Source of the DNA: Chiloscyllium plagiosum | Lineage: Eukaryota | Direction of reading: 5' to 3' | Length of the DNA stretch: 64,000 nt | NCBI RefSeq assembly: GCF_004010195.1 | Contig: NC_057718.1 | Span: 74,719,403-74,783,402 of the forward strand | Shown: piece by piece, positions 5,209 through 58,590 of the stretch | Position numbering within the stretch: the first letter of the stretch is position 1 | How the letters are laid out: every line of letters starts with the position of its first letter | Made by a program: the position numbers and the translations under genes | The notes under the pieces: generated by a model | What the model saw: the letters and a program-made list of their open reading frames with translations, nothing else | What the model was told of the DNA's origin: nothing | The model's database searches: none

Positions 5209-8141
5209 GAAAATAAAATTGCTGGAGATCGTGCAGCATCCATGGAGAGAAAGCAAGCTACTATTTCGAGTCTAGTCAACTCTTCGTCAAAGCTGAAGTG
5301 CAGTGTAGATGAGGCAGCAGTTATGCAATAGTGGTGGTGGTGGTGGTTAGACGGCTGAGGGAGAAAGGATGCTGATAGTTCTGTTTAAGTGTTTGGAATG
5401 TGAGAATGGCAGAATGGTGTGTCTAACTGCCAGACCTGAATGAACAGATCGTCCCACTGTGGCGAATGGGAAGAGGGAAAGAGGGTCGTCTCAATTTCTC
5501 TGCAGCTCTCACCCACTCTAAGCTGTCCCCCTCTGAAATTGTGGCACTTCGTTCTCTCAGGTCCAACCCTAATTTTATTATCAAACATGCTGACAAAGGT
5601 GGCGCCATTATAGTCAGGTGCACTGATCTTTACCTTGCGGAGGCTCAACGACAACTCTCGGACACTTCTTCCTACCTCTCCCTGGACCATGACCCCACAT
5701 CCAATCATCAAGCTATTGTTACCAGGACTGTCAACTACCTTATTGCTTCCAGAGAATTTCTCCTAACTACCTCCAAACTCAGTCTCCCAACTTCGGACAG
5801 CTCGATTCTGCCTTCTTCCCAAAATCCACAAACTAGACTGTCTCAGTATGCCCATCATATCAGCCTGTTTCTGCCCCACTGAGCTCATTTCCTCTTACTC
5901 TGACTATATCCATTCTCCACTTGTCCAGACTCTGCCCGCTCCCCCACCACATCTGCAGCCCTCCACCATATTGACAATCTCCAGTTCCCTGGCCCTAGCT
6001 GTCTACTCTTTACCATGGATGTCAAATCCCTCTACACTTCCATTCCCCATCAGTGTGGTCTCAGAACTCTCAGCTTCTTCCTCGACCAGAGGCTTAAACA
6101 ATCCCCATCCATCACCACTCTCCTCCACTTAGCTGAACTTGTCCTCCCACTGAACAATTTCTCCTTTAATTCATCCCACTTCTGCCAAATCAAATGAGCA
6201 CCCATTTGGGTCCCAGTTATGCCTGCCTCTTTAAAACATAGAAAATGATGCCAAATGAAACTAATCCCTTTTGTCTGTCCTTGGTCCATATCCCTCTATT
6301 TGCATATTCATGTGCTTATCTAAAAGTCCTTTAAATGCTCTGATCATATCTGCCTCCACCACCTCCCAAAGTTGTGTATTCCTGACTCCTACTACTCTCT
6401 GTATAAAAGGTGCCCCTCGTGTCTCCACTGAACTTTCCCCCTAGTATGAGACATTTCAACTCTGGGAAAAACATTCTGACCATCAACCCTATCTGTGCAT
6501 CTCATAATTTGAGAAACCTCTATCAAGTCTCCCCTCAGCCTCCGCTGCTCAAGCGAAGACAATCAGTTTTTCAAGCCTCTCCTTATAGCTCATACCCTCT
6601 AATCGTGGCACCATCTTGGTAAACCTCTTCTGCATCCTCTCCAAAGCCCCCACATCCTTGCAGTAATGTGGCGCCAGAATTGAATACAATATTCTAAATG
6701 TAGCCTAACCAAAGTCTTCACTCTTGGACTCAATTCCCTGACCAATAAAGGCAAGCATGCCACAAGCCTTCTTTACCACCCTATCGACTTGCATGGTCAC
6801 TTTCAGGGAGTTATGGACTTAAACCCCAAGATCCTTTTGTACACCAATGCTGTCCAGAGTCCTACATTAACTGTCTACTTTTCCTTAACATTTGATCTCC
6901 CAACACTTACCTGGATTAAACTCCATCTGCCACTTCTCCACCCATATCTGCAACTGATCTTTATGGGGTATGTGGAACAATCCTTATTCCAGTCCTACAA
7001 TGGCCCCCTCCCACAACTGTTTATTGGCAAATCGACAACTATTTCGGTATCACTTCATGTTCCCGCCTAGACCTCAAAAAGCTTGTTCATTTTGCCTTCA
7101 ATTTCCAACTCCTATATCTTTCACATTGTCTGTCTCCAACACTTCTTTTCCTTTCCATTACCTCTCCATCTCCATTTCAGGAAACAAACTGTCCGCTGCC
7201 ATCCACTACAAAGCCATTGACTCCCATAGCTACCTTCACTGTAATTCTTCCCACCCCAAGGATTCTTCCTCATCCACCCAGTTCCTTCACCACTGTTGTA
7301 TCTGTTTGAATAATGCAATCTTCCAAAACAGCAGTGCTGACATGACCATTATTTCCCACCCACTTTGGTTTACATGGCCATCATCTGGATGCGACATACC
7401 ATCTATGCTTCCGCCCTTGCCCCTTCCCATCACTAACAGCAGCATGATCAGGTCACCCTTGTTCTCACTTTTCACCCCACCAGCCTCTGCATTCAAAGGA
7501 TCATTCTCTGCCATTTCAGACGGCACCAGCAGAATACCATCACCAAACACATCTTCCCTTCACTCCCACTGTCTGCATTTTGCAGTGATTGTTCCCTCCG
7601 AGAAACCCTAGTCCATTCCTCAACCACTAACACCACTATGCTGCAATGCACCAGTGAACCACAGAGCAAACTCATACTGCAGGGAATCTAATCTAAAAAT
7701 TTTTTTAAAAATCTCATTTTCAACCTTCTGGGCTCAATATTGAGTTGAATACCTTCAAATTGCGAACCTATTCCTTCCCTTTAGCTTTGCTTGTTACATT
7801 GTCTGTCACTCTCTCTCTCCCCTTCCCCCACCAGAGTGGGACTATCTTTTCTTTCCAATCTGGCAGTTTGACACACCATTTTCTACCATTCTACCATTCC
7901 GATCACTTAATCTGAACTATCAACATCTTTTCTCCCTCAGCACTCCAAACACCACCTCCAGCCTCCACTTCACCATTATTGCATAAATGCTGCCCTCTCC
8001 ACACTTCAGCTCTGAAGGAAGAGTCATCTAGATTTGAAACATTAGCTTGCTTTCTCTCCAAGGATACTGCCTGATCTGCTGTGATCTCAAGCATTTTTTG
8101 CTTTCAGTTCAGATTCCATCGTCTGCAGTAATTTGCTCCTA
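5209..8141 (+). mobile_element. Penelope-like element with inverted termini, interrupted by CR1
   Basis: PLE RT motifs (IKHADKGGA, MDVKSLYTSIP, LNNFSFNS, YKAIDSHSYL). 5209-5490 is an inverted copy of ~7810-8100. Flanks catggacaaggagt (5195-5208) / catggagaaggagt (8142-8155) form a TSD. Confidence 0.82.
6235..6958 (-). mobile_element. CR1 3' fragment nested in the PLE
   Basis: CR1-type 3' end and RT C-terminal sequence; the PLE RT reading resumes after ~6960. Confidence 0.75.
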
Positions 8142-8329
8142 CATGGAGAAGGAGTTTCTATTGAGCCTGCAAAATATCACAATTTCAAAACATCACATGA
8201 ATCATTCCTGTAATGAGCACAGTCTACCCCATTATCAGCTAAAATCCACAAGAATGCCCACTTTATCCATTTAAAGACAGATTAGCTTACTTCACAAAAA
8301 TACACAATATTAAAACTGCACAGTCATGA

Positions 8330-9841: not shown

Positions 9842-11669
9842 TAGGTGCGTAATGGAATCTAGAACCAGAGGTCGCAGTTTTAAAATATGGCATCGCCCGT
9901 TTAGGGTAGATAAGAGAAGGAATTTCTTCTCTTTGAAGGCAGTTAATCTTTGACACTCTACTCAATGGACAGTGGAGGCTGGGTCATTGAATGTATTCAA
10001 GGTTGACAGATTGTACAGAGTGAACAGATTTTTTGACCCACTATGTTATGCAAGTGAGCAGGAAAGTGGAATGGCCATAATCATACCTGCAGATTGGCAG
10101 AGGAGGAGGCAAACTATCTACTCCTGTTCCAATTTCTCATTTTCTACTTTTCTTGCCAATGATAATTAGAATCCCATGAAAAATTCATAAATTTCCCAGT
10201 GACTAAATTACATGAAAGGAATTCATGTTTTAAGACTTTGATTCCAACAAATCAACTAAAAATCATCATTTACTAAACAAGGCAACTAATACACTCAATA
10301 GAGTAAGATTGAGTAATTAAGTTAAGTTAACTTAAAACACCACTTCATGTTAAATGTTACATCACACTATAAGCAAATTCATAGTCCCAAATTCCTGATG
10401 ATTCAATAGGCTCCGTTCCCACCAAGAAACCAGGCTGAGTCTTCAAATGTTCCCTTTGGAAGTCCCTTCACTTAGTCTCCAGGCTATCATCAAACTGACT
10501 CCCAATTTCGAAGTTTCGCTGGTAAATCTTTGATCGCATTTAACGAGGATTTTAGGAGTGGGAAATAGTGCAGGCAGGAGTCCTTAATTAAAGGTGGGAG
10601 CGGGAAAGAAAGAGATGGAATATTGATTTACTGAATCTTGATTCTGGGAACCAGAAGAGAAGACAAGTAGACAGCGAGGTGGAAACTGGAGACTGTAAGA
10701 ATCATGAAGATAGCATTAATAAGGGGAAGAGTATGCAGAGAGCAGATGAAAGCAAAATAACTGATGGCCTCAAGTGCAACTACTTTAATTCAAGTAGTGT
10801 GTAAGGCAGATGAACTTAGGGCTTGGATTGAGACTGTAAGAATCATGAAGATAGCATTAATAAGGGGAAGAGTATGCAGAGAGCAGATGAAAGCAAAATA
10901 ACTGATGGCCTCAAGTGCATCTACTTTAATTCAAGGAGTATAGTGTGTAAGGCAGATGAACTTAGGGCTTGGATTGATGCCTGGGAATATGACGGTATTG
11001 CAATCACAGAGACTTGGTTGAAGGAAGGGCATGATTGGCAACTAAATGCTCCAGGACATAGATGCTTCAGAGAGGACAGGGAGGGAAGTAAAAGCGGGGA
11101 GTGGAGTTGCATTGTTGGTCAGGGATGATATCATGGCCAAGCTAAAGGAGGACACTATGGAGGGTAGTGAGGCATTATGGGTGAAGCTGAGAAATAAGGG
11201 TGCAGTTACATTGTTGGGGCTGCATTACAGGCCTCCCAACAGTGAGTGTGAGGTAGAAGAACAAATAGGTAAACAGATTATGGAAAGATGCAGGGGCAAT
11301 AGGGCAGTGGTGATGGGAGATTTTAATTTTCCTAACATTAACTGGGATACACTTAGCATCAGAGGTCTGGATGGGGTAGAATTTGTAAGAAGCGTCCAGG
11401 AGAGTTTTCTAGAGCAGTATGTCAATACCCTGATGAGGGAAGGGGCCACATTGGACCTGGTACTGGGGAACGAGCCAGGACTGGTGGTAGAAGTTGCGGT
11501 GGGGGATTTATTTGGGAACAGTGACCACAATTCTGTAAGTTTTAGAATGCTCGTAGACAAAGACAAAAGTAGTCCTAAGGGAAGAGTACTAAACTGGGTC
11601 AAAGCCAATTATATCAAAATTAGGCAGGAGTTGAGAAATGTGAATTGGACAAGGCTATTTGAAGGGAAG

Positions 11670-11765
11670 AGCTGAAAAATGTGTTGCTGGAAAAGCGCAG
11701 CAGGTCAGGCAGCATCCAAGGAGCAGGAGAATAGACGTTTCGGGCATAAACCCTTCTTCAGGAAT
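11670..11765 (-). mobile_element. short PLE-terminus insertion carrying a hammerhead motif
   Basis: ~95-bp unit recurring across the window; TSD tatttgaa(g/t)ggaag; minus strand attcCTGAAGAagggtttatgcccGAAACGTC. Confidence 0.8.
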
Positions 11766-12014
11766 AATATTTGAATGGAAGTCCACATTTGATATATGGG
11801 ACGGTTTCAAAGATAGATTAAAGATAGTGCAGGATAGATGTGTCCCGGTGAAGACAAAGGATAGGAAAGGCAACTGTGGATGACCAGAGAAATCATACGA
11901 CTAGCCAAGAGGAAAAGGAAAGCGTAAATAAGGTCCAGGCAGCTTAGAATAGAATGGGCCCTGGAGGAATATCGAAAGATTAGGACCAGTCTTAAATGAG
12001 GAATCAAGCGGGCA

Positions 12015-12140
12015 GAAAGTGAGGTCTGCAGATGCTGGAGATCAAAGTTGAAACTTTATTGCTGGAACAGCACAGCAGGTCAGGCAGCATCCAGGGAACA
12101 GGAGATTCGACGTTTCGGACACAGGCCCTTCTTCAGGAAT
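12015..12140 (-). mobile_element. short PLE-terminus insertion carrying a hammerhead motif
   Basis: 16-bp TSD aggaatcaagcgggca (11999-12014 / 12135-12150). Confidence 0.85.
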
Positions 12141-12141
12141 C
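12104..12141 (-). ncRNA. minimal type I hammerhead ribozyme motif (intact)
   Basis: gauuc-CUGAAGA-a-GGGC(cugu)GUCC-GAA-ACGU-C-gaauc: full core, stem II, palindromic stem III (ACGU), GUC site, paired stem I. Confidence 0.8.
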
Positions 12142-12649
12142 AAGCGGGCAATAAAGGGATCATGAAATAGCTTTAGCGAGCAGAATTAAGGAGAATCCCA
12201 AAGCATGTTATTCTTATATAAAAAGCAGGTAACTAGAGAAAGGATTGGTCCACTAAAGGATGATGAAGGAAGGCTGTGTGTCGAACCTGAGAGAATGGGT
12301 GAGATTCTGAATTATTACTTTGCATCAGTGTTCACTGAGGAGAGGAACATGATGAATGTTGAGATTAGAGATAGAAGCTTGATTAGTCTGTATCACATCG
12401 ACGTAAGTGGAGAAGATGCGTTCGATAGGCTAGAAGTTATTAAGGTGGACAAATCCCCAGGACCGGATGGGATCCATCCCAAGTTGCTGAGGGAGGCGAG
12501 AGAGGAAATAGCTGGGGCCCTGACAGATATCTTTGTGGCATCCTTAAGCACAGGTAGGTGTCGCAGGACTGGAAGGTTGCTCATGTTGTCCCCCTGTAGA
12601 AGAAGGGTAACTACAGACCAGTGAGCCTGACGTCGGTGGTGGGAAAATA

Positions 12650-14296
12650 CTGGGAAAGTACATGTGTTGCAGGTCACGAAGAACATGGCATAGTTTTTCG
12701 GCTCCTGGGAAGTACTGGACAACAAAGGGTACCCTGTCAGTTGCAGCACGTGCCTGTCTCCTGAGGAGGTCATTACAGTTCCTTGCTGTGGCACATTGGA
12801 ACTGGCAGTCGATGAGTTGGGCATCGAACCCCATTCTTATGAGGGCATCCCTGAGTACTTCCATGTGCCCATCATGTTCCTCCTCATCTGAACAGATCCA
12901 GTGTACACATAGGGCTTGTCCATAGGGGATGGCTGTTTAAATATGTTTTGGGTGGAAGCTGGAGAAGTGTAGCATTGTGAGGTCGTCTGTGGGTTTGCGG
13001 TAGGGGATGGTGCTGAGGTGTCCATCCTTAATGGAGATGCATGCATCCAAGAATGAGGCAGATAGCAGAGAGTAGTCCATGGTGAGTTTGATGGTGGGAT
13101 GAAACTTGTTGATATAATTGTGGAGTTTTATCAATGACTCCTCGTCATGGGTCCAGAGGAAGAAAATGTCATCAATGTACCTGGTGTATAATGTTGGTTG
13201 GAGGTCCTGCGTAGAGAAGAAGTCTTGTTCAAACCTGTGCATGAAATTGTTGGCACATTGGGGTGCAAATTTGGTCCTCATGGCTGTTCCATGTGTCTGC
13301 ATGAAGAACTGGTTGTCAAAGATGAAGATGTTATGATTGAGGATAAAGTGGATGAGTTGTAGGAGGGTGTTCAGAGATTGGCAGTTGTTGGTGTTGAGTA
13401 CTGAGGCTGTTGCCGCAATGCCATCATTGTGGGTGATGCTGGTGTTAAAGTGCTGAAACATCCGTTGTGACGAGGAATGTTCCTGGTTTGATTGGTCCAT
13501 GGCTGCTGAGTTTTTAAGAAATCCGTAGTGTCGCGATAGAAGCTGGGGATCCCCTGTACAATGGGTTTCAAGATGTCTTCAACATAGCAGGAAAGATTCT
13601 CACACAGGGTCCCATTGATACGATGGGACATCCTGGTGTATTGGCTTTGTGTATCTTTGGAAGGCAATAGAAGTCACCTATGCGAGAAGTACGTGGGATG
13701 AGGGAGCGTAGGGTATTCTGAAGGAGTGGATCCAAAGTCCTTATCAATGTGTTTAATTCACAGGTGTGCTCTTTAGTCGGATCAGCTGTTAGTTGCCTTT
13801 AGTGTTCCTGATTGTTCAGTTGTTGGTACACTTCCTTGCAATAATCTGTTCTATTCTGAATGACGATGGCTTCTCCTTTATCTGCTGATTTGATGACAAT
13901 GTTGTGATTTGTTGTGATTGGTTTTGAGAGCATGGATGGTGTTGCATTGTGAATGGGTGATGTTTTGCTCTACTTTGTGGGTAAAGCACAGGAGGCTAAC
14001 ACCTTCAACATCTTATCTGGCCTGACACCAATTGTTACAGTTAACCTGAGAATGTAACTTTTAAAAAAAAGTTTTGTGATTTACATATGAAAGAAGTGAA
14101 ACTACCATGGTCATTCTAACAGATAAGAGACTTAAACAATCAAGGTATTTTTCAATGTATAGTTTCAGTTACATAACACTATAAACTTTTGCTATAAATT
14201 CTGTGTCTCCACAACCACCTGATGAAGGAGCAGTACTCCGAAAGCTAGTGCTTCCAATTAATGTTGGACTATAACCTGGTGTTGTGTGATTTTTAA
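12650..14296 (-). mobile_element. Penelope-like element (second family) with inverted terminus
   Basis: HGTAMRTKFAP, RYIDDIFFLW, FHPTIKLT, YRKPTD..TMLHFSSFHPKH; the terminal segment ~14010-14296 carries a plus-strand hammerhead. Confidence 0.85.
14216..14250 (+). ncRNA. minimal type I hammerhead ribozyme motif (intact, family 2)
   Basis: cac-CUGAUGA-a-GGAG(cagua)CUCC-GAA-AGCU-A-gug; palindromic stem III AGCU; stem I cac/gug. Confidence 0.82.
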
Positions 14297-15530
14297 CATC
14301 ATAGAGCAGGTGAAGGATAGTGACAAACTTCCTGGTGCAACCAAAGTAGAGAAGCATTTCATGATGCTTCCCAAATGACAGTGTCAAAGATCTTTGTAAG
14401 GTCGAAGGCGGCCATGAACAGGGGTAGGTTCTTTTCCCTGCATTTCTCCTACAATTGTCCATTGTGCCTCTCCATGGTCAAAAGCCACATTGCAATTCTG
14501 GGAGTAGTTCTTCAGCTACAGGGAAGAGACGGTTGAAGACAACCTTGGCAATGACTTTTCAGATGGTCACTACAGGTCACTCCTGTAGTGACCAAAGTCA
14601 GACTGTTCCTTTTTTTTAGAAAATGCTCACAACTGTGGCATCTCTGAGCTTTCCTGGAAATCTCTCCCTTTTCATGATAAGACAGACAATCGCATGTAGC
14701 TTCAGCAGGAGCTCTTTGCCTCTGCATTTTAATGCCTCAGTGGACATACTGTCTGCTCCAGCAGTCTTCTTGCTCTTAAGCTAGCAGATGGCCTTCTCTA
14801 CTTCAGCAGGGCTGGGGTGTTGCTGAAGTTGTGACATGTAGCTTGCTGTGGGATATGTTCAAGGATGCTCGGATCTATAACAGAGCTCTAGTTGAGAAAG
14901 TCTCTGAAGTGTTCCTCCAGTGGTTGTTTGATGACTTCTTTATATTTGCTAAGAGTTATTTTGTCCATGGCCAGTAGTGGGATGGGGCTTTTGGCGTTTG
15001 GTCCATATGCATTCTTGACAGCACAGAAGAAACCATACATATCGTGGTTGCCCGTCATTCATTATGCTTCCAGTGCTTTTTCTATCCACTACATGTTCTT
15101 TATGTCGCGGGTTTGTTTTTGGGCCTCAGTCACATATAGGCCTGTCTTTTCTCTTCTGAGTGTAGTTGTCATTTTAAGGCATCCACTTCCAGCTTAACAG
15201 TTCTTGGATCTCCTGACCATTCTCATCAAACCAGTTTTAGAGCTTCCTGATTGAGTGGCTGACTGGATTTTTTTGTAGAAATTGATGATGATGGTCTTAA
15301 GGGCAGACCAAAGGCTGTTGGGATTCAGTGATGCAGTGTCGCCGAGGGACGCTAGGTTTATGGAGAGGAGTTGGCCGTATGAGGCAATTTTTTTACGGGT
15401 ATTTTAATTCCTCAATGTTGAACTTTTTGCAGCATTGCTTCTGTTGTCTCCACTGCACCGAGGCTATATTTATGATTGAACCTGGTTTGGATCAGGCAAT
15501 GGTCCATCCAGCTGTAGTCGGCTCCTGTCA
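14297..15530 (-). mobile_element. RTE-clade LINE fragment
   Basis: Decayed motifs WFDEN, VKNAYGP, LPELQCGF, EKCRE, FDLTK.FD, GC.RKFV.IL. Confidence 0.7.
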
Positions 15531-18100: not shown

Positions 18101-18182
18101 GTTGGTTATGCCCGAAACGTCGATTCTCCTGTTCCTTGGATGCTGCCTGACCTGCTGCGCTTTTCCAGCAACACATTTTCAG

Positions 18183-19995
18183 CAAGAATTAGAAAGCCTA
18201 AAAGGGGCCATGAAATATTCTTGGCAAGTAAATTAAGGAGAATCCCAAGGTATATTATGTGTAAAATAGGAGCAAGAGAGTGGTTGGAGAAAGGATACAT
18301 TCTCTCAAGGACAAAGGAGAGAACTAATGCGTGGAGCCAGAGAAAGTGGGTGAGGTCCTTAATCAGTACTTTGCATCAGTATTCACCAGGAATGGCATGG
18401 ACTAATATTAGGGAGGAGTATGTTGATATTCTAAGGCACGCCAATATTAAGGAGGAGGTGGTGGTGGTAATGGGTGTTGTGAAAATCATAAGGTAGATAA
18501 GTGCCCAGAGAATGTTGAGATCTGAAAGAGGCAGTGGCGGAGATTGCTAGTGCCTTGCCAGAGATCTCTGTTTCTTTTTTAGCCAGAGACAAGGTTCCAG
18601 AACACTGGAAAATAGCCAATATTGCTCCTTTGTTTAAGAAGGGCAATAGGGATAATCCAGGAAACTACAGATGGGTAAGCTTTACATCAGTGGTAGGGAA
18701 ATTATCGGAGATTCTTAGGGACAGATTTACTCGCTTTGGAAAAGAATGGACTTATTGGGGATGGTCAGCATATCTTTATGAGGAGAGATCATGTCTCACA
18801 ATTCGACTGATTTCTTTGTGGAAGTAACAAAGATGATTGAAGAAGATAGGGCAGTGATTGTAGTCTACATGGACTTTAATAAAGGTGCCTCATGATAGGC
18901 TGGTCTGGAAGATTAAGTCACATGGGATCTATAGCAAGTTGGATATAAAATTGGCTTGGCAATAGAAGACAGAAGGTAGTTGTGGAAGGGTGTTTTTCTA
19001 ACTCGAGGTGTGTGACATGATGTTCTATACTGATCAGTGTTGAGCCCTCTGTTGCTTGTAATTTTATAAATGATTTGGATGTAAATGTAGGTGGTTTGAT
19101 CTAGCATCTGCAGTCCTCACTTTCTCCTAGGTGATTTGATTAGCAAGTTCAATTGGTGAAGTTGGGGAAAGTGAGGAATGTTGTCAAAGGATACAGATGG
19201 TCATAGGCCAGTTGGAAAGTTGGGTAGAAAAATGGCAAATGAAGTTTAATCTGAGCAACCATGAAATGATGCATTTTGGGAGGTCAAATGCAAGAGAAAA
19301 GTATCCAGACCCTGAGGAGCATTGATACATAAAGGGATCTTGAGGTGTAATGCTCCCTGAAAGTGACAACACAAGTGTTAAGGTGGTCAAGAAGGGATTC
19401 TTGCCTTCATTGGTCAGGGCATTGAGTACAAAAGTTAGCAAATTGTGTTGCAGCCATAGAAAACTTTATTCAGGCCATATTTGGAGTACAGTATGCAGTT
19501 CTGGTTACCACACGAGAGAAGACTGTGGAGGTTTTGGAGAAGGTGCAAAAGTGGTTTAATAGGATGTGACCTGTAAGGAGTGGTTGGATTGGATTGTTTT
19601 TGCTAGAGCATTGGAGGCTGAGGACCTGATAGAAATATATAAAATTATGAGAGATATAGATGGGGTAGACATTCAGAATCTGTTTTCTAGGGTGGAAATG
19701 TCAAATACTAAGGGAATAGGTTTTAGGTAAGAGGGGAAAGTTTTAAGGCATTGTGTGAGGAAAAGTTTCTCTTACCCAAAGGATGGTAGGTGCCTGGAAC
19801 AGCTGCCAGGGGGATGATAGAAGCAGATATAATATATAGTACAAGCGGCATTAACAGACACATGAACAGACAGGGAGGGAATAGAGGATACAGTACATAT
19901 GCAGACAGATGGGATTTGTTTTGAATGGCACCATGCATGCCAAAGACATAGTGGGACAAAGGGGCTGTCATGTGCTGTACTATTCTAATGTTCTA
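18183..19995 (+). mobile_element. CR1 LINE RT fragment with 3' tail
   Basis: WKIANIAPLFKKGNRDNPGNYR, YMDF.K; ends in ttcta repeats. Confidence 0.85.
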
Positions 19996-24089: not shown

Positions 24090-25440
24090 GGAGTATGCCA
24101 TTCAGCCCCTCGAACAGGGTCTGCTCTTCTGTATAGGCATTGACAATAAAAGTTGTATAAAGTAAAAAAAATTCAATGAGCCCTATCTCCTGAAGCTAGA
24201 GAGTTCTGAAGTCGCATAATCATCTGTAAGAATAGTGTTCTCCTCGTTTCTGTCCTGACAGGAACATTCCTAAATTTTAAGCAGTGTCCCTCCAGTTCTT
24301 GATTCACTCCAAACATTCTTTCCTTGTTCGTCTTGTTAAAGCCATTCAGGCTCAATCAATCAATTTAATTCCAGTGGAATCAAATCCAGTCTGTCCTTCC
24401 TTTACTCATAAGGCAAACCACTCAACCCAGTAATCAATACACTTTGTATGAACCATTTCCAATGCATTTACACCTTTCCTTAAGTAAAGAAACCACAACA
24501 ACACACAATATTTGTGATGTGGTCTCACCAACATCCTATATAACCATACCACTGAATCCTTACCTTCATTTCAATTCCTTCTGTTATAATAAAGGATAGC
24601 ATTTCATTAACCTTATTAATTACTTACTGTTCCTGCGTACTAACATTTTTGTAACTCATGCAATAGAGCAAAATCTCTCTGTATCTTGAAAGACTATATT
24701 CATTGTCCATTTAAGTAATAGTCTAATTTTAGATTATTCCCATAAAATTGAACAACTTCATATTTCACTATATTCCATCCACCAATCTTCTTCTCATTCA
24801 CTCAACCTATCTACATTCAAGTACATTTTTGTTATGTTATCTTCGGAACATATTTATAATTCATTTTCAAGTCTTTTAGAAGCTTTCCAGCATCTGGCAT
24901 ATTTTGGAAGAGTATCAGTGAAATTATTACAACTTTATTACCCACATCTTTTCAGACTCTAGACTGAAGTCAAGTAGGAGAAAGTGAGGACTGCAGATGC
25001 TGGAGATTAGAGTCTAGTGTGGTGCTGGAAAAGCACAGCAGGTCAGACAGCATCTGAGGAGCAGGAGAATTGGCATTTCAGGCATAAGCCCTTCCTGATG
25101 AAGGGCTTATGCCCAAAACATTGATTCTCCTGCTCCTCGGATGCTGCCTGACCTGCTGTGCTTTTCCAGCACCACACTCTCGACTCTAGACTGAAGTCAT
25201 CAGAACCCAGAGACTTGTCAGCCCACAGTTCAATCAGTTGGCTCACTAGGGACTGTAAGTTTCTCTCTCTCTTTCATCTTCTGATTTAAAGCAGTTGCTG
25301 ATGGCTTTTTGTATAACCTCTATTGAGAAGAAAGAAATGAAATATTTATTCACTTCATCTGTCATTTCCTTATTATCTATCACTGACTCCCCATTCTTAT
25401 TCTCTAGAATGCCAACAGACACGGTGCTTACTCTTTTCCA
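24090..25440 (-). mobile_element. old CR1 fragment(s)
   Basis: Degenerate CR1 3' RT similarity (RTETRRTLFLQMIMRL). Confidence 0.6.
24973..25181. mobile_element. palindromic PLE-terminus insertion
   Basis: Inverted arms centred on the hammerhead segment; 18-bp TSD gactctagactgaagtca (24955-24972 / 25182-25199). Confidence 0.85.
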
Positions 25441-28145: not shown

Positions 28146-28149
28146 AGGC

Positions 28150-32053: not shown

Positions 32054-32423
32054 CTGAAAATGTGTTGCTGGAAAAGCGCAGCAGGTCAGGCAGCATCCAG
32101 GGAACAGGAGAATCGACGTTTAGGGCATAAGCCCTTCTTCAGGAATGAGGAAAGTTTGTCCAGCAGGCTAAGATAAAAGGTAGGGAGGAGGGACTTGGGG
32201 GAGGGGCGTCGGAAATGTGATAGGTGGAAAGAGGTCAAGGTGAGGGTGATAGGTCAGACGGGGGTGGGGGCGGAGAGGTCGGGAAGAAGATTGCAGGTTA
32301 GGAAGGCGGTGCTGAATTCGATGGATTTGACTGAGACAAGGTGGGGGGAGGGGAAATGAGGAAACTGGTGAAACCCGAGTTCATCCCTTGTGGTTGGAGG
32401 ATTCCTAGGCGGAAGATGAGGCG
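32054..32423 (-). mobile_element. PLE 3' end with terminus
   Basis: Minus strand reads RLIFRLGILQPQGMN..F (PLE C-terminus) followed by the terminal unit; hammerhead GAAA mutated to TAAA. Confidence 0.8.
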
Positions 32424-36196: not shown

Positions 36197-36367
36197 ACAG
36201 AAAGTAAGGACTGCAGATGTTGGGGATCAAAGTCAAGAATGTAATGCTGGAAAAGCACAGGTCAGGCAGCATCCGAGCAGCAGAAGGGCTTATGCCCAGA
36301 ACTTCGCTTCTCCTGCTCCTCAGATGCTGTCTGACCTGCTGTGCTTTTCCAGCACCACAATTTCAAC
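36197..36367. mobile_element. palindromic PLE-terminus insertion
   Basis: Inverted arms; TSD acaaacagatacggtg / acagacagacacggtg. Confidence 0.75.
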
Positions 36368-37719: not shown

Positions 37720-39060
37720 AACCAAATGGTATATGTTCTGAGACTGTCCTGGTCATAACAAAATGGTGACTTCCCATGTCAAGCCATTTGAAACCAGGAA
37801 GAGCTTTTTCTTGAAACAAGTCAGGAAGGATTGTATATAATCTGCACATAGCAACAATGAAATGAAATCTTACTAATCGCTTCACAAATTGATATTCACC
37901 TTCGCTGCACTTCATTTTAATAAAATCTGCTTTCTCCCGATCCAAAGCCATCTTTTGTAGGCCATCTTTGTCCTTGTCCATAACAAATTTGAACTATACA
38001 ATGTTGTAGTCACTGGCGCCAAAAACTTCCCTCACTGCCACATTGAACACTTCATTGCCCACAACCAGACCCAGCACTGCATTATCGCTTGCTGTGCTTT
38101 CTATAAATTGATACAAAACACTCCCCTGAATACAGTTCAAGAAACCGACCACCTCTAAACCCTTAATACCATCCGAATTTAAATTGGGAATGTTGCAATC
38201 CCTAGTATAATTGCTAGATTATTACTCTTATATACATCAGTGAACTGTCTATATATTTGCTCCTCTATTTCCCACTGACTCTTTCGGAGATCTATAATAC
38301 ACTCCCAGTAATGTGACTGCCCCCTTTAACATTCCTAAGTTCTACTCAACAAGTCGTGCTTGAAGACTTTTCCAAGATATCATCTCTCGTTATTACAGTA
38401 ACTGATGCCTTAGTTAATGGTGCTACTCCACCACTCTTTTTACACCCACCTCTATCTCACAAAGATTTTATACCTTTCCCTTAACTATGTTTGTGTGATG
38501 GCAATAAAATCACACCTCCATGTGTCAATCCAGACCTTTAACTCAACAGTCTTACCTATTACACTCTTGCATTAAAGACTATCCGGCCTTCCCTTACTCT
38601 CTTGAGACTCAACATAGCTGAACTCACTCTGACTTATATGATTACCAATCCTTTGGCCACTTTGCCACTGCCTTTCACCACGTTATATGCTTTCTCTTTT
38701 GCTTTTATGCTGTCCCCGACTTCTCTGGTCAGCCATGATTGCCTCATCCTCCCTTTAGTAAGTTTCTTTTTCCTCGGGATGAATTCTTGCTGCGTCTCCC
38801 GAATTAGTCCCAGAAACTCATGCCATTGCTGTTCCAATGTCTTTCCTGCTAGGCTCCTCTCGTAGTCAACTCTGGAAACCCATATACAATATTTTAGGTA
38901 TGGTCTCACCAATGCTCTATATAACTGATGCATAATATCCTTCACTCTATGTTCAGTTCTTCTCTTAATAAAGGACAGCACCTCATTATCAATCTGGATT
39001 ACATGCTACCTTTTTGTGACAGATGCACCTGAACACACAAATCCCTCTGTGCCTCAGAAT
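37720..39060 (-). mobile_element. adjacent CR1 fragments
   Basis: EN-region decay; QQWHEFLG...QSWLTREV; LYRALVRPYLKYC. Confidence 0.7.
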
Positions 39061-39061
39061 A

Positions 39062-39150
39062 GCTCTGATGAAGGGTCACTGGACTTGAAACATGAACTCT
39101 GCTTTCTCTCCACAGATGCTGCCAGACCTGCTGTGTTTCTGCATCAATTT
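39062..39150 (+). ncRNA. PLE terminus with degenerate hammerhead motif
   Basis: CUGAUGA-a-GGGUC(acug)GACUU-GAAAC; stem III and cleavage site mutated. Confidence 0.6.
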
Positions 39151-39189
39151 CAATTGGTTTGAGATTTTCAGCGTCTTTGTGCTGTCTTG

Positions 39190-40261: not shown

Positions 40262-42146
40262 TAAGATGTGGAGATGCCTGTGATGGACTGGGGTGGATAA
40301 AGTTAAAAATCACGCAACACCAGGTTATAGTCCAACAGGTTTATTTGGAAGTACTAGCTTTCAGAGCACTGCTCCTTCAGGTAGTTGTGGAGCAGGATCA
40401 TAAAACACAGAATTCATAGCAAAAAGATCACTGTCATGCATGCAACTGATACAATATGTTGAACAAATCTGGATTGCTGTTAAGTCTTTCATATTTTAAT
40501 ATGGATTGCAGGTTTTGGTTCATTAATATAAATCCCAGACCTTCATTCAAATCACCTTCTTGAGGAAACTTAAGATTTTATACAAAAAAAGTGACATTTC
40601 AGGTCAGACAATCTGCAGATTTGTGCTTCGTGAACAAAATAGAATGTATCTGCAATTACAGTGTCACACACAATGCATGTGTGTGTGAGTCTGTTTTTGC
40701 ATGTGTGCGCCTCTCAGCCGGGGGGGGGGTATGTTGCTGAGACAGAGAGTGTGTGTGTGTGAGAGAGGGTATGCGAGAGTGTATGCATGAGAGTGTGAGA
40801 GAGAGTGCACAGTGCAAGGTCCCGGTTAAGGCCATCCTCATGGGTACGGAACGAGGCTATCAGCCTCTGCTTGTTGCATATCCCGAAGTCCACCTTGGAA
40901 GATGGTTACCCAAAACACGCACTCTCACATGCACACTCTCTCCCACACAAACTCGTCTATGGGGTGAATTTGCATTTTCAGAATTGTAATTAGAGATACA
41001 TTCTATTTTGTTCAAAAAACGCAATCTACAGGCAGTCAATCCATGTTAACATTTTATAAATTCCTATTTTGGAAATAGAACCAGTCTGACTCAAGAATGG
41101 TGTTATGATACTGGGTAAACCCTCCTGCTTAATTTTAACCAGCAACACAGAAGAGATTTATCCCATGCAGTAATCTGTGAATATTTGAGAGGCCAAGAAC
41201 TACTTAAGGTAAAAAATAACAACTTTATTTCTTACGGTATAATGGAGAATAATTAACTAACAACTATTTACAACTCTTTCCTCTAACCTATCTTTTACCT
41301 CCCCTTCTACAATACTAGTCCAATAAAATCCCCCGATTAAGATTTACTAAAAATTCAAGTTTTCAAAATCAGCCAGCTGCTGAATTTTCTATTTGGATCT
41401 TCCTGTGTCTTCTTTTCTTCTTCTGAGGGATTATGCTTCACAGGTCACAGATCGATAAAGATACCTTTTCTCTGGTTAGTCTGCAGATCATTGGCTTGGC
41501 AGTTCTCCTACCAACTGTTCAATTTCCCCCAGCCATATACCCCCCAAAGCATCAGATTGTGTCATTGGCTTTTAAAATCGTCAATATACTAAATTCAAAC
41601 TTGATTGGAGTTTGGTATCTTTTGGGGTATAATTTAAACTGACTGGCCTAATTCTAATCTGTTTTGTCGTTTCCAGGCAACCCAGCTAATCTAGTTTTCG
41701 ACTAAGTGATACATTGTTACCTTACTCAGAACACTTGGTGCTGTCAAGTAGTTCTGCTAGCTTTCAATTCTATTAAAAGGTCCAGTACACTCACATCTTC
41801 ATAACAATTGGGATACAGGCAGACTCTAGCCTAACATCTTTAATGCATTGCCTGAGCCAAGATATCACTTTTTATTATATAACCTTAAGTTATCACAAAT
41901 GCGATTTGGAAAAGTTCTAGTATTTACATATTAATGAACCGAAACCTGCAATCCATTCTAAAAGATGAAAGACTTAACAGCAATCTAGGTTTATTCAATA
42001 GATCATATGAGTTGTATGCAGCATGACACTGTGATCTTTTGCTATAAATTGTGTCTTTATAAACCTGCTCCACAGCTACCTGAAGTAGTAGCACTCCAAA
42101 AGTTAGTATTTCCAAATAAACCTGCCAACTATAACCTGGTGTTGTG
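40262..42146. mobile_element. family-2 PLE derivative with long inverted termini
   Basis: 40300-40600 is inverted relative to ~41820-42146; both ends match 14170-14296; hammerhead cores damaged. Confidence 0.75.
41101..41806. mobile_element. solo LTR (706 bp)
   Basis: tgttatga...tcataaca terminal inverted ends; flanks aatgg / attgg (5-bp TSD, one mismatch). Confidence 0.75.
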
Positions 42147-42464
42147 TAAAAAAAAATTAAGGACAGCTCTAACTGTCAAATCTACCTGCAGGGATTGCCA
42201 TAGAGACTTTGTGAGCACATTTCCTCATACAGCAGGTAGCATATCTGTGACACAATGGCCCGGGATATCCCAAGTCTTTTCTGCAATGGACCTGTGTCAT
42301 TTGCAAAGATCTACATCGAAGTCTATAGAACAGTTCTATGCCAGAACTCTGTCACCTTGGTCCTGTTTCTTCTCTCACTAGATGCTGTACAACAGCCAGT
42401 GGTGGCTACTGATCATATTTAGCCTGGAGATGTTGTTATATGTGCTGTCTTAATAGAATGAGAA

Positions 42465-43265: not shown

Positions 43266-43668
43266 AGACAGGCAGGAGGCTGGAAGAACACAGCAAGCCA
43301 GCAACATCAAAGGGCTGAGAAGTTGAGGTTTCGGGTTTAACCCTTCTAAGGACTGGAGGTGGGTGCGGGGGGAGTTGCAGATAAAGGATGTGGTGGGGCA
43401 GGTTAGTGAAGTGAGAATAGGTGAAGATAGGTAGAGGGTATGACCTGGTTGGTCAATGGGAGGAATGAATCCAGTGGTGGCAGGGAGGAGTGAAAGGGAT
43501 GGGAAGGGCTGGGAAGTTATCTGAAATCCCCCCTACACTCACCCCAGTCCTGAAGAAGGGTTACATCCGAAACATTGACTTCTCCACCTCCTGATACTGT
43601 CTGGCTCACTGTATTCTTCCAGCTCCTGCCTGTCTTTCTTGGAATACAGCATCTGCAGTTTTATCATC
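43266..43668. mobile_element. inverted-repeat PLE derivative (family 4)
   Basis: 14-bp TSD actcacaaatgaat; hammerhead agtc-CTGAAGA-a-GGGT(tac)ATCC-GAAAC-ATT-gact at 43546-43580. Confidence 0.82.
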
Positions 43669-44731: not shown

Positions 44732-45096
44732 CTGAAAAACAATAGTCAAACATTTGAAGAGGTTGTTATGTATGGTTTTTTGCCATCAATATAATATGTC
44801 AAATTTTCCAAGTCCCAAGTTAAATTTGAAAAGGAACATGTCAATAAATACAAATTTGCTTTGAGATATGGTTTATGCTACTGCACATACTGATTAGAGA
44901 CAAAGAAAATGCAGATGCTAGAATCCAAAGTAGGCAGGATGCTGGACGAACACAGCAAACCAAGCAGTATCAGGAGGTAGAGAAGTCTACGTTTTGGGTG
45001 TAACCCTTCTTCTGGACCGGGAATAGGTGTAGGGGGAGCTGCAGATACAGGTGGAGGCAGGGGCAGGGTGGTGATGTGGGGATAGGTCAAGACAGG

Positions 45097-45276
45097 AGGT
45101 CAGGCAGCATCCAGGGAACAGGAGAATCGATGTTTCGGGCATAAGCCCTTCTTCAGGAATCTTATGCCCGAAACGTCGATTCTCCTGTTCCCTGGATGCT
45201 GTCTGACCTGCTGCGCTTTTCCAGCAACACATTTTCAGCTCTGATCTCCAGCATCTGCAGACCTCACTTTCTCCTC
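45097..45276. mobile_element. palindromic PLE-terminus insertion
   Basis: 15-bp TSD ataggtcaagacagg (45082-45096 / 45277-45291). Confidence 0.85.
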
Positions 45277-46074
45277 ATAGGTCAAGACAGGTAGAGGGTA
45301 CAACCTGGTTGGTCAATGGGAGGAATGAATCCAGTTGGTGGCAGGGAGGAGTGGAAAGAAGGGGGAAGGGCTGGGAAGGGAGGTTATTTGAAATTAGAGA
45401 ACTCAATGTTGAGTCCTCTGGATTGTAGGCTACCCAGGCGGAAGATGGGGTGTTGTTCCTCCAATTTGCGGTTTGGTTCATTGTGGCAATGGAGGAGGTC
45501 AAGGATGGTAATATCAAAAAGGGAGTGGGAAGGGGAATTAAAATGGGCGGTGACTAGGAGGTCCGATCAGCCCCTGCGGGCCTGGTTGAGATGCTCAGCG
45601 AAATGTTCCCCGAGTTTACATTTGGTCTCTGTGGCAATGGAGGAGGTCAAGGATGGTAATGTCAAAAAGGGAGTGGGAAGGGGAATTAAAATGGGCGGGT
45701 GACTAGGAGGTCCGATCAGCCCCTGCGGGCCTGGTTGAGATGCTCAGCGAAATGTTCCCCGAGTTTACATTTGGTCTCTGTGATGTAGAGAAGACAACAT
45801 CAGGAGCAACAGATGCAGTAAACTAGGTTGGAAGAGAGGCAGGTGAACCTCTGTCTCACCTGGGAGGACTGTTTAGGGCCCTGGATGGAAGTGGGGAGGT
45901 GGGGGTGGAGTACCAGCAGGTTTTGCATCTTTTCCAGTTGCAGGGAAACGTACCCGGGGGTTTGGGGGAATGAGGGTTGGTGGGGAGAGTGGCACAAACC
46001 AAGGACTGCAGAAGGGAATGGTCCTTGCAGAAGGCATAATGGGGTGGGGAGGGGAAGACATTCTTGATGATGGG

Positions 46075-46275
46075 CTTAAAAATGTGTTGCTGGAAAAGCG
46101 CAGGTCAGGCAGCATCAAAGGAGAAGGAGAATTGACGTTTCGGGCATAAGCCCTGAAGGACTTATGCCCGAAACGTCGATTCTCCTTCTCCTTTGATGCT
46201 GCCTGACCTGCTGCGCTTTTCCAGCAACACATTTTTAAGATCTGATCTCCAGCATCTGCAGTCCTCACTTTCTCC
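46075..46275. mobile_element. palindromic PLE-terminus insertion
   Basis: 16-bp TSD cattcttgatgatggg; near-perfect ~80-bp arms. Confidence 0.85.
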
Positions 46276-48319
46276 ATTCTTGATGATGGGGTCTAGTTGG
46301 AGTTGGCAGAAGTGTTTAAGGATGATGCGTTGGATGCGGAGACTGGTGGGATGGTGGTGAGGACAAGGGCGCACTGTCTTTATTGTGTTGTGGGGGGCTT
46401 TAGAGCAGTGGGACAGGGAATGGAGGTAACGTGGTGGAAGGCTGTATGGATGACAGATGGAGGAAAAGTATATTGTTCGAAATTGGTGGTCATCTGGCAT
46501 GCTTGGGAGTGGAGTATCTCCTCATCCAAGCAGATGTGGCAAAGGCAAAGGAATTGGGAGAACGGAATGGAGTTCTTGCAGAATACTGGATGGGAGGAGC
46601 TGTAGTCCAGGTGGTTATGGGAGTCTGTGGGTTTGTAGTAAACGTCCATTTGGAGACTGTCACCGGAGATAGAAATGGAGAGGTCAAAAAAGGGCGTCCA
46701 AGATGGACCAAGCAAATTTAAGGATGGGGTGCAAGTTGTGGGCGAAGTTGATGAACTGCTCCAGTTAAGCCTGGGCGCAGGACGCTGCACCAATGCAGTC
46801 ATTGATGTAATGGCGATAGAGTTGGGGCACAGTGCTGGTGTAGCTACGGAAGACAAACTGTTCGACAAAGAGGCAGGCGTAGCTGGGGCCCATCCAGGTG
46901 CCCATGGCCAGCCTCTGGGTTTGGAGGAAATGGGTGGAGTTGAAGGAAACGCTGTTGAGAGTGAGGACCAGTTCAACGAGACGGAGGAGGCTATTGGTGA
47001 AAGGGAACTGGATGGGTCTGTTGGAGAGGAAGAAGCAGAGGGTCTGGAGGCCATCCTTTTGGGGTATGGGCGTGTACCAGGACTGTATGTCCATAGTGAA
47101 GATAAAGCGCTACGGACTGGGGAACTAGAAGTTACTGAAGAGATGGAGGGCATGGTGGATGTAGGTGGGAAGGGCCTGAACCAAGGAGGAGAAGATGGAG
47201 TCAAGGTAGGACGAGATGCGTTCGATGAGGCAGGAGCATGCTGAGATGATGGGTCAATCAAGGTAGCTGGGCTTGTGGATTTTGGGGAGCAGGTAGAATC
47301 AGGCAGTGCAGGACTAGGAGACTATGAGTTTGAAGGCAGTGGAGTGGAGATCACTGGAGGCAATGAGGGCACGGACAGTGTGAGTGCTTTTAGCCTGATG
47401 GCCCACATGCGGTCGTGGGCAAGGGGGAGGTAGGACGTGGTATTGGAGAGTTGGTGTTCAGTCTGTGCGACATAGAGGTCTGTTCTCCTGACTACCACCT
47501 TTGTCAGCAGGCTTGATGGTGAACCAGGCATTGGTGCGGAGAAACTGGAGTGCTGCACATTCGGAGCAGGTGAAGTTGGAGTGTGCAAGTGCTGTAGAGC
47601 CAGAGAGCTAACTGCTCGTCTAACATTTTGCTCTCAAAGAAATGAGAAAACACTCGATCAAACATACTTTTTATTGTGAAACGTACTCACAGTTAATAAA
47701 AAGAAAGACAACAACCCAGGGAGATCATCAGCAGGAACAGTGAAAACACCGAAGAAGACAGCGACTGTGTGATCTTGAGATTAAGTTATTGTAATGTTTA
47801 ATAAATGTATTATTGGAACAGTATATTATTTTTATAGAGTTAGCATGAGATAGTACATAGCTAAGAAAGGATGAGCTTGGATTTGTGAATAGTATTTGTT
47901 TAATGTTCACTATTAGAGTTTAAATAAGTTATTTCACTTAGTGGAATTTAGGAGTTTCCTATCACTCACTTACATTTTAACAGATTACAAGGTGAGGCAA
48001 GCTTTTCTGGGTTTTGGTTTTAATTAACAGAGAAGTTTGACCTCTGTGTTGTAACACCTGTACCGCCAACAGGAAAGTTACAGCACACTGGTGTAAGGAC
48101 CAATATTAGGGACGTGCTCTGGGAGTCCTCTGTGTTTACTCCAGACCTTGTGAGGTCTGATGGCATCAAGTCAAATGTGGGCAAGGAAATTTGCTGATTT
48201 ACCATGTTACCACCCCAGCCCTGCTTGGCTGATTAATCAAAGCTCCCCCATGTTGAATACTAAAGGAAGTACAGGATGCAGCAAGGGCCGAGAATGTACA
48301 CTGGTTTGATGACCAAAAG

Positions 48320-55743: not shown

Positions 55744-56419
55744 TGAAACATGCCAAGAAAGAACAGAAACAATAACAACTCAAAACAGAAACAGCAAAGA
55801 TAGCAATAGATCTATTTATAGCAGTTTATAAAGTTAAAAAAGTATATAATAGATAATGCTGAAAATACTCAACAATTTAAGCAGCACCTATATAGCAGGA
55901 TAAACAAAACTAATTGTTTCAGATAAATAGCAATTCATTAGAACAGAAAAACATTTAGAGATATGGAAGGTTTTTAAGTTTATACAAGGACAGGGTAGTG
56001 AGGAAGACGAGGAAAGAACGAAAGGGTAATTTGTGATAGGTTGAAAGATAGAATAGAAGAAGTGACAATAGAGATGACTATTCAATGCAAAAGGATATTG
56101 CAACATGACAAGCAAAAAACAACAGATAGGACTCGTGTTTCCATGTTTCATTACCAAAGACAGTTGCTCGAAAAATAAAATGGCAGTTGTGGTTATGGTC
56201 CTTCAAATGTAGAGCTCAGTGTTGAGTCTGAAATGTTGCCAAGTACCAAAGGAGTACTGATTACTCAAGTTGAAAATATTAGGCCAAATCTTATAAGGAA
56301 GGCATTCATAGTTAATGGCTCTTCATTGCCTGGCATATACCTCAATCTAAAATTACTATGCAGCCAGGGACCAACCCTGGTTCAATGGAGAGTGCAGGAA
56401 AGCCTGCCAATAACAGCAG

Positions 56420-58590
56420 CAGCCACATTTAAAGATTAGATGTTGGCTTGTGAAGTGAGGGAACAGGACTAATTGTGCGTCAAACAGTATATGCAGCAAG
56501 TGACAGACAGAGCTAAAGCAATCTCACAACCAATGGATTAGATCTAAGCTCTGCAGACCTGCCAAATCCAGTCATGGACAATTAAAAACTACCTGAAGGA
56601 GGTGGCTCCACCAATATTTCCATCCTCAAGAATGGAAGAGCCCAACATATCAGTGCAAAAGAGAAGGCTGAAGCATTCAGACAACCTTCAGTCACAAGTG
56701 CCAAGTGGATGATCTGTCTCGTCCAGTGGTCCTCAGTATCACAGATTAATTTGATTCAACCAATTTGATTCACTCCAATTGATATCAAGAAATGGTTTGT
56801 AGCATTGGATACTGCAAAGGCTATGGGCCCTGACAACATTCCAGCAACAGTTCTGAAGACTTATGCTCTGGAACTTGCTACATCTCTAACCAAGCTGTTA
56901 CAGTACAGCGAGGTAAAAACAATGACTGCAGATGCTGGAAACCAGATTCTGGATCAGTGGTGCTGGAAGAGCACAGCAATTCAGGCAGCATCCGAGGACA
57001 GGCAAAATCGACGTTTCGGGCAAAAGCCCTTCATCAGGAATAAAGGCAGNNNNNNNNNNNNNNNNNNNNNNNNNNNNNNNNNNNNNNNNNNNNNTTTCCT
57101 ACTCTATGCCACTCTCTCCCCACCCCCACCCTCCTCTAGCTTATCTCTCCACGCTTCAGGCTCTCTGCCTTTATTCCGGATGAAGGGCTTTTGCCCGAAA
57201 CGTCGATTTTGCCTGTCCTCGGATGCTGCCCGAATTGCTGTACTCTTCCAGCACCACTGTTACAGTACAGCTACAACACTTCCATCAACCTGACAATGTT
57301 GAAAATTGTCCTGACATGTCCTTTATAGATACAGCAGGTCAAATCCAATTTAGCCAATTATCACCCCAGTCTACTATCAGTAAAGTGACAGTACATTTCA
57401 ACAACAGCTACTTGGCAATAACCTGCTTACTGATATCCAGTTTGGGTTCTGCCAGGACCACTCAGCTCCTGACCTCATTTGAGCCTTAGTTTAATCATGG
57501 GCAAAAGAGCTGAATTCCAGGGGTGAAGTGAATGACAACCTTTGACACCAAGCCCACATTTGACCAGGTTTGGCATCAAGGAGCCCTAGCAAAGCTGAAA
57601 CCGATGCGAAGCAGGCAGAAAACTCTTCACAAGCTAAAATCCATATCTGGCTCATTGGAATGTAGTTGTGGTTGTTAGAGTTCAGTCTTCTCAGTTTCAG
57701 ACATCTCTGCAGGCATTCCTCAGTGCAGTGTCCTAGGCCCAACCATCTTCAGCTGCTTCATCAATGACCTTATCTCCAAATTAAGATCAGAAGTGGAGAT
57801 GCTTAATGTTCAGAACTATTCACAACTCCTCAGATATTGAAGCAATCCATGTTCAAATCTTATAAGACCTGAAAAACATCCAGGCTTGGGCTGACAAATG
57901 GCAAGTAACATTCACGCCACACAAATGTCAGGCAATGACCCTCTCCAATAAGAGACAGACAATCTAACTACTGCCCCTTGATGTTCAAGGTGTTACCATC
58001 ATTGAATTCCCCCACTACCTACATCCTAGGGGTGAGTATTGATGAGAAATACAGTGGCTACAATGGTAGGTCAGAGACTAGGAATACTGCAACAAGTAAC
58101 TCACCTCCTAATTTCTCAAGGACTAACCTCCATCAACAAGGCACAAGAGAGCAGCATTATGCCTGGATGTTAGAAGCTCGAACAATCAAAAAGCTTGACA
58201 GCATTCAAGACAATGCACTCCACTTGATTGACATTGCATCCACAAACATCACACATGCCCTTCTTTTCTTTCTCTTCCCCCATCACACCCACACACTTTC
58301 ATTCAGTAGCTCTTCTTGGCGAACTTTAAGTGGCAATTGGATAGGTACATGGATGGGTGCTTAAGCTAGGACAAATGTTCGGCACAACATCGTAGGCCGA
58401 AGGGCCTGTTCTGTGGTGTATTGTTCTATGTTCTATGTTCTTCCCAGCCCCTCCACATCTTTGCAGGAGGTCCTCAGGGTAGTGCCATAGGCCCAATCAT
58501 CTTCAGCTGCTTCAGTGATGACCTTCCCTCCAAAAAGATCAGAAGTGGTGATGCTCAATGTTCACAACTCCTCAGCTATTAAAGCAGTCC
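56420..58590 (+). mobile_element. LINE (CR1/L2 group) RT fragment
   Basis: DTAKAMGPDNIPATVLKT, GIPQCSVLGPTIFSCFINDL, IQAWADKWQVTF. Confidence 0.75.
56910..57256. mobile_element. inverted-repeat PLE-terminus insertion spanning a small N gap (57050-57094)
   Basis: 15-bp TSD ctgttacagtacagc; intact minus-strand core attc-CTGATGA-a-GGGC(tttt)GCCC-GAAACGTC at 57006-57041. Confidence 0.85.

Follow-up and report, generated by a model that had tools for sequence, protein, structure and literature searches.

Minimal hammerhead motifs at the ends of Penelope-like elements in the shark Chiloscyllium plagiosum, and short copies that probably represent uncut leader RNA

Our reading, which we hold to be probable, is that minimal type I hammerhead motifs lie in the terminal repeats of at least five families of Penelope-like elements (PLEs) in the shark Chiloscyllium plagiosum, about once per 4 kb, and that their short copies are likely complementary DNA (cDNA) of an uncut 5' leader, read as far as the RNA cap. 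The stretch analysed, called the window throughout, comprises 64,000 nt of contig NC_057718.1 (74,719,403-74,783,402, forward strand) from an assembly of 3.56 Gb. A preliminary description had reported dispersed minimal hammerheads carried by PLE termini; the feature is real and of a known kind, and the core of that interpretation holds with corrections.

The preliminary description had proposed a descriptor search for type I hammerheads. Run on the window with one extra base allowed, it recovers three copies with a perfect core and both stems of at least 3 bp, against a mean of 0.01 in 100 dinucleotide shuffles of the window, and 13 near-intact matches with at most one core change, against a shuffle mean of 1.12 and a maximum of 5. 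The extra base is an unpaired residue between A9 and G10.1, a T in family E and otherwise an A; of 139 core-perfect copies taken from the window and from fetched loci, 135 have it. Because it separates A9 from stem II, the motif as first written, with the hairpin straight after CTGANGA, has no strict match in the window. An inventory based on families gives 27 matches, 23 of them covering most of the hammerhead, in five groups designated A (A1-A3), B, C, D and E; the recurrence noted earlier is thus upheld along with the estimate of at least four families, the earlier figure of about 15 copies being too low. A hammerhead-like motif or piece occurs at all eight coordinates singled out as best copies and at all eight listed as decayed. 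Three of the former (12136-, 14219+ and 57037-) have an intact core, a palindromic stem III and the stem I of their family. Each of the other five departs from this: the first stem-I pair is gone in 11761-, ACAT stands instead of ACGT in 45156- and 43550+, position 17 is a G in 39065+, and G5 is changed to C in 28458+. Of the sites called decayed, those near 25095 and 46140 are head-to-head pairs, 5'-shortened at or inside the core. Most hammerhead copies are decayed or truncated.

Covariation was counted on core-anchored columns of eight family or subfamily majorities built from core-selected copies; a MAFFT alignment of ten representatives set family B out of register, and the anchored columns were used for the stem counts. 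The core CUGANGA / GAAA / UH is present in 8/8 of these core-selected majorities, and the G10.1-C11.1 pair in 7/8, with G-T in C2, whose majority derives from 4 old copies. A palindromic A15.1-N-N-U16.1 replaces helix III, reading ACGT or AGCT in 6/8 majorities; those of C2 and E2 read ACAT and ATGT (4 and 2 copies), consistent with CpG decay. Across both stems, 58 of 64 cells pair, compared with a partner-shuffle mean of 38.3, and 58 was reached in 0 of 10,000 shuffles. Stem II served in copy selection and the families are related, making stem I alone the fairer figure: 27 of its 32 family-by-position cells pair, and three types of pair occur at every one of the first three positions, a result that agrees with the covariation between families described earlier. 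The stem I given as attc/gaat exists in subfamily A2 only, the commonest forms, A1 and A3, having attc/gatt with a U·U mismatch. In family A, 31 of 83 copies depart from the reference at position 7 and 0-4 at adjacent positions, as would be expected of a free core position. Core and palindrome are both kept in 33 of the 83 family A copies having a whole core, and decay is fastest at CpG. Within families, divergence is lower in the core than in the tail (4.5% against 8.8% for family A, 4.4% against 6.3% for family B), a difference not taken as proof of selection because it is biased by copy choice and pooled subfamilies. None of the 17 matches from an Rfam scan of the window (E up to 10) is to a hammerhead family; they are hairpin look-alikes (microRNA models) on inverted pairs, below gathering scores, and a miss by covariance models would be expected for motifs without helix III.

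The hammerheads belong to PLEs. Four families (A1, B, C and D) adjoin reverse transcriptase (RT) or GIY-YIG remnants within the window, in keeping with the claim of minimal type I hammerheads at PLE termini. The fragments in the window were placed by tblastn, having been missed by Pfam; on PLE open reading frames (ORFs) Pfam matched RVT_1, and PF01541 on some homologs. Families C, B and D each flank an RT remnant with a downstream repeat and/or an inverted upstream copy, the known PLE layout, and locus L084 has hammerheads in direct terminal repeats with a unit of 3.08 kb. RT followed by a C-terminal GIY-YIG with CCHH was read by eye at L081 and L086 (family B) and at window positions 45280-47574 (family D), and was not seen for family C. 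A CX2-5CxxC linker between RT and endonuclease occurs in B (L080, L086) and A3 (L090); in one family E1 copy read through, at C9right, a C-terminal GIY-YIG lacks the linker Zn finger. The window copy at 28458 (E2) has no ORF remnant of its own. By domain layout, families A-D would be Neptune-type PLEs, with a linker also shared by Nematis, and family E a putative Poseidon-type (Penelope/Poseidon) PLE. For a family B ORF the best homologs come from sharks, with identity of up to 90% across a portion of its length, matching the shark host named previously.

The 3' ends of copies fall at either of two points that are separated by 30-40 nt, corresponding to the PLE tail. In family B the outer 3' end coincides with the start codon in L057, and L084 has the same layout with the codon changed; in A3 a candidate ATG lies about 38 nt farther on at two loci. 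At the other edge, many copies are stubs of 95-130 nt with 5' ends piled at the front edge of the ribozyme. This distribution was measured on 192 family A copies found via the tail, not via the ribozyme, with positions numbered relative to C3 of the hammerhead. Eighty-two begin at -5..+12, with a peak at -4 and -3; upstream, 18 begin at -11..-6, 27 at -99..-12 and 34 beyond -100, and downstream, 12 begin at +13..+26, 2 at the cut site (+27..+29) and 17 at +30..+46. So few ends at the cut site indicate that most integrated cDNAs run through it, and the idea that copies start there is rejected. Likewise rejected is a 3' splice site at this edge like that of D. virilis, the native upstream sequence having no AG. 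Neighbour arrangements were counted on 276 hammerhead-bearing ends, 88 of which have a head-to-head partner within 60 bp.

Several irregular arrangements of these ends were also encountered. At the centres of L304, L301 and L239, head-to-head joints are filled with several short re-copies of the first 10-15 bases of the element, which suggests repeated re-priming at the cDNA end. At L081:9267-9558 (+) family B ends stand in a partial tandem at a distance of 291 bp, and L084 downstream of 6721 (-) carries an internal duplication of about 100 bp restarting in the tail just before the start-codon position. Stubs of one family sit directly at the tail of another's end at C9left 12953 (-), L075:1759-1886 and L086:3424, hinting at a target preference for PLE tails.

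The front edge carries a second signature, a non-native G at one fixed position in two families. In A1 and A2, A(-4) is natively preceded by C; where this preceding base is non-native, it is G in 7,410 of 12,611 cases genome-wide, against 26% expected, and one base inward G makes up 13 of the first 100 matches listed. The excess persists in non-inverted A1/A2 copies (10/18 after dropping one duplicate, p = 0.007). For family B, the start at A(-8) was predicted before counting, from one copy and a sequence resembling the initiator consensus. By hand counts, the preceding base is G in 86 of the first 100 matches listed of 870, and two neighbouring control positions give 27/100 and 15/100. Among 74 family B junctions read, 65 have the G and 1 was classed as native upstream; the classifier reference is one base off the commoner B variant, and about six cases scored as filler really abut. 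Five family B loci have the G on both arms (L239/240, L280, L282, L301 and L304), and at L302 a lone G follows the target duplication. Origin of the G from the sequence after the cut is unlikely, as it also appears in A2, where that sequence differs, and in B copies. Point mutation of long copies is rejected for family B by the single native junction in 74. The junction signature is, on balance, the part worth specialist attention.

The following course of events most likely produced these edges. Transcription would begin 4 nt before C3 in A1/A2 and 8 nt before it in B, on an A resembling an initiator, and the hammerhead would therefore be the first structure of the RNA. The element's enzyme would nick the target and start priming internally, either about 90 or about 125 nt downstream; in family B the outer of these two sites would be the start codon. 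RT would then pass the intact ribozyme to the cap and add a C, read as G. A second cDNA, made from the other strand or by fold-back of the first, would be end-joined head to head with trimming and filler, and longer copies would arise by priming in the downstream repeat of read-through RNA. The ribozyme may be kept by selection in master lineages and is probably a slow cutter needing a dimer or an element protein, a dependence that would leave most templates uncut.

Several observations count against this course of events. Copies of A3 type have no G excess (22 G, 23 A and 55 C of 100). Thirty A1/A2 G-loci were read; in all 7 (6 independent) that have a clean target duplication at the junction, the duplication includes the G, and in many inverted junctions the partner could template it; microhomology choice therefore explains part of the excess. 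The edge itself is blurred, with ends at -3 about as many as non-native ends at -4 (12,356 vs 12,611). Minimum-energy predictions give a hammerhead shape only for the A2 monomer and, with mismatches, the A1 dimer, A3, B and E1 being predicted to fold otherwise. Finally, the cap is inferred from DNA junctions.

Some of these observations would suit the nearest competing explanation, which we regard as doubtful. It takes the stubs for ordinary PLE ends that are merely 5'-truncated, with RT stalling on or past the hammerhead fold or a bound protein, and with a G supplied by microhomology with target or inverted partner rather than by a cap. Besides the duplications containing the G and the behaviour of A3, it can draw on a partner G abutted in at least 12 of the 65 family B G junctions and on 5' ends spread across about 18 positions. 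It accounts poorly for a G excess limited to one position in each of two unrelated families, for the G on both arms in five loci, and for the place of the edge, since a stop caused by structure should fall at the fold's 3' base and not past its 5' edge.

[quoted passage not shown] The integrating product would be the stubs and head-to-head pairs, near a million ends genome-wide by extrapolation, and once cut at the downstream hammerhead, the RNA would end in a terminal repeat of about 32 nt that could serve as a landing site. If true, it would bring pseudo-long terminal repeats (pLTRs), inverted copies and the ribozyme's role into one scheme.

The same ends are dense across the genome. Over 80 dispersed loci of 10 kb (762 kb in all), 207 hammerhead-bearing ends correspond to 1 per 3.7 kb, close to the one per 4-5 kb estimated before; since density is alike in these loci, the window is typical of the large contigs sampled. 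Core-perfect copies number 96 in 1.017 Mb, about 1 per 10.6 kb, and one exact A-family pattern has 46,341 occurrences per strand genome-wide (the same figure for both strands, taken as printed). A single-cell poly(A) RNA run yielded 1,495 reads on both strands, with depth tracking copy number and no pile of ends, a pattern that speaks neither for nor against cleavage or a particular start site; a second run yielded none. A same-strand family neighbour within 400 bp was found for 14 of the 276 ends, and the tandem setting needed for dimers is therefore rare among dispersed copies. This bears on the preliminary description taken literally, that dispersed copies are working ribozymes cleaving host or element RNA as dimers. 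The abundance of core-perfect copies, the palindromic stem III of family majorities and the weak dimer cleavage published for such motifs (PMC4209133) speak for it. The rarity of tandem neighbours, the retention of core and palindrome in only 33/83 whole-core family A copies with CpG decay, and the 2/192 copies that begin at the cut site speak against it, making it improbable. The least plausible proposal, one we give very little credence, makes the stubs an independent non-autonomous element, retrozyme- or SINE-like (SINE, short interspersed element), copied via circles or its own transcripts: the very high copy number of short forms and the PLE-end-derived non-LTR retrozymes reported in one chondrichthyan (bioRxiv 10.64898/2026.07.22.740005) would suit it, yet the window has no tandem array of the hammerhead unit, tandem neighbours are rare, junctions differ at every sampled locus, and stubs match full-element ends subfamily by subfamily.

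Individual features of the window are as follows, with method of detection in brackets. A broken PLE RT remnant at 2..1424 (-) belongs to a type that in other parts of the genome lies upstream of A3 hammerheads (58-84% by tblastn to ORFs of L062-L090). The family C element has a broken RT region at 5427..7622 (+) (tblastn); a decayed hammerhead end at 5226..5335 (-) (family inventory) is the inverted copy heading the element at 5427-8132, and a second end with A9 changed to G lies downstream of the RT at 8004..8132 (+) (descriptor scan, family inventory). At 11668..11765 (-) an A1 stub starts at -4, with a perfect core, the first stem-I pair lost and a short 3' end (family inventory). The A2 stub at 12014..12141 (-) has an intact hammerhead and a long 3' end (descriptor scan); it starts at -4, preceded by G, and its flanking direct repeat takes in this G. 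A broken family B PLE ORF with RT and thumb at 12540..13982 (-) (tblastn, 63-82% to L081/L086/L087 ORFs) is headed by an inverted copy with an intact hammerhead at 14216..14297 (+) (descriptor scan, family inventory). The family inventory further places an A1 stub starting inside stem II (+12) at 18106..18183 (+), and head-to-head A1-type stubs at 24987..25187, joined at the core, and at 36205..36365, truncated at +32 and +4. The family E2 hammerhead at 28450..28528 (+) has G5 changed to C and T as the extra base (descriptor scan) and would be Poseidon-type by kinship to E1.

Both the descriptor scan and the family inventory find the A1 end at 32050..32420 (-), with native upstream sequence, a GIY-YIG C-terminus (32146-32420) and G12 changed to T; the C2 stub with G at position 17 at 39057..39175 (+); and two family D ends facing outwards at 43266..43660, of which the minus arm (43266-43356) is decayed and the plus arm (43542-43660) has a perfect core and stem III ACAT. 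Family B ends at 40265..40424 (-), with a 3-base core loss, and at 42036..42147 (+), decayed, come from the family inventory. The family D element has a broken ORF with RT, thumb and GIY-YIG at 45280..47574 (-) (tblastn) and, as its 3' end, a hammerhead with two core changes at 44907..45021 (-) (descriptor scan, family inventory). Inside it lie a head-to-head A1 pair at 45093..45280 (family inventory), with a minus arm from -4 preceded by G and a plus arm from +11, and another inserted in the ORF at 46079..46284, with arms truncated at +7 and +5 (tblastn, family inventory). The A3 end at 56923..57045 (-) is intact as in its family and adjoins an assembly gap (descriptor scan, family inventory), and its inverted partner at 57101..57265 (+) has U4 changed to G (descriptor scan, tblastn, family inventory).

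Other sequences share the window. A lone hammerhead-like match at 41680-41740 (-), changed at one core position, has no relative in the rest of the window and is probably a chance occurrence. Frames at 53749-54114 (-) and 43926-44765 (-) match Pfam Mei4 (E 1e-23 and 5e-8) as exons of the meiotic gene MEI4; the intron between them holds the family D element and two A1 pairs, with no intact sense-strand hammerhead. Between A-family ends at 32050-32150 (minus) and 34894-34953 (plus), positions 32628-34892 form a tandem array of a 56-nt unit in about 40 copies. A SINE-like dispersed repeat family at 16596-16807, 22698-23016, 55435-55743, 60075-60368 and 63426-63618 appears to resemble the shark HE1 SINE. 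Long interspersed element (LINE) fragments with apurinic/apyrimidinic (AP) endonuclease and RT lie at 11046-11675, 12190-12624, 31481-31882 and 49853-51202; Pfam matches Exo_endo_phos and RVT_1 on three of the LINE frames, and one fragment cuts into the family B element.

The closest known counterpart is the minimal hammerhead of metazoan PLEs (Cervera and De la Pena 2014, PMC4209133), for which dimer cleavage of low activity is reported. The likeness is extensive: a type I motif without true helix III, a palindrome at 15.2-16.2, the extra base between 9 and 10.1 that is a published trait of these motifs, the G10.1-C11.1 pair, a short helix I, many families with covariation, and mostly solo copies with some opposite-strand pairs. 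Helix II differs, being 4-5 bp in the shark and 7-8 bp in Schistosoma. Numbers differ as well, with about 3 x 10^5 core-perfect shark copies by extrapolation against 4,000-9,000 minimal hammerheads reported in coelacanth and Xenopus, figures not strictly comparable as descriptors differ. The accessible portion of that paper names no sharks and mentions no fixed 5' edge with G.

Neptune and Penelope/Poseidon PLEs bearing an endonuclease (EN+; PMC8557442, PMC3846280) are known for a pLTR, an inverted 5' copy and a tail of 30-40 bp. They share with the shark families the RT with C-terminal GIY-YIG, the Zn-finger linker (A3, B), direct or inverted terminal repeats, an optional tail and target duplications. 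Head-to-head palindromes are ascribed there to self-priming on an antisense template; the inverted junctions and solo copies of the shark differ in that their position relative to the ribozyme and to the inferred start is fixed with single-base precision.

The Poseidon of Anolis (PAc; Frangieh et al. 2024, PMC11167929) was studied in vitro, where two internal priming sites set the tail, both strands are nicked and extended, and the ribozyme cuts only with protein and is dispensable for insertion, uncut RNA being the main template. Its two RT start sites, its use of both strands and its uncut template parallel what is proposed for the shark elements. Priming in PAc takes place 111-118 nt into the ORF, and stem II contains its start codon, whereas in shark family B the ribozyme and both 3' ends precede the start codon; the PAc templates were also made in vitro, and the accessible text reports no cap signature. 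In full-length L1 insertions, a non-native G at a fixed position of the 5' junction is read as a copied cap (PMC11702581). There the G marks full-length copies and usually lies outside the target duplication, whereas in the shark it marks leader-only stubs and frequently falls within the duplication or where inverted copies join. Non-LTR retrozymes (bioRxiv 10.64898/2026.07.22.740005) have in common with the shark copies a type I hammerhead, an origin from PLE ends and an occurrence in a chondrichthyan. They are defined by tandem units, and the shark copies are solo or head-to-head, with 14 of 276 ends having a same-strand neighbour within 400 bp and no array in the window. Literature searches, with most subscription journals, supplements and figures outside their scope, listed none that deals with hammerheads of shark PLEs or with a cap-derived G in such elements; among the matches listed, no PLE paper used 'strong-stop' and none paired 'extra G' with 'Penelope'.

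The pairing of PLEs and hammerheads has been known since 2014 and is extended here to a shark at very high density. The added value is mechanistic and concerns the way in which PLEs form pseudo-LTRs and inverted copies, and the part played by their ribozyme. The junctions, in their thousands, point to an RNA start placed to the base at the edge of the ribozyme and to uncut templates in vivo, and they yield an exact construct together with exact predictions for cap mapping and for the existing PLE in vitro system.

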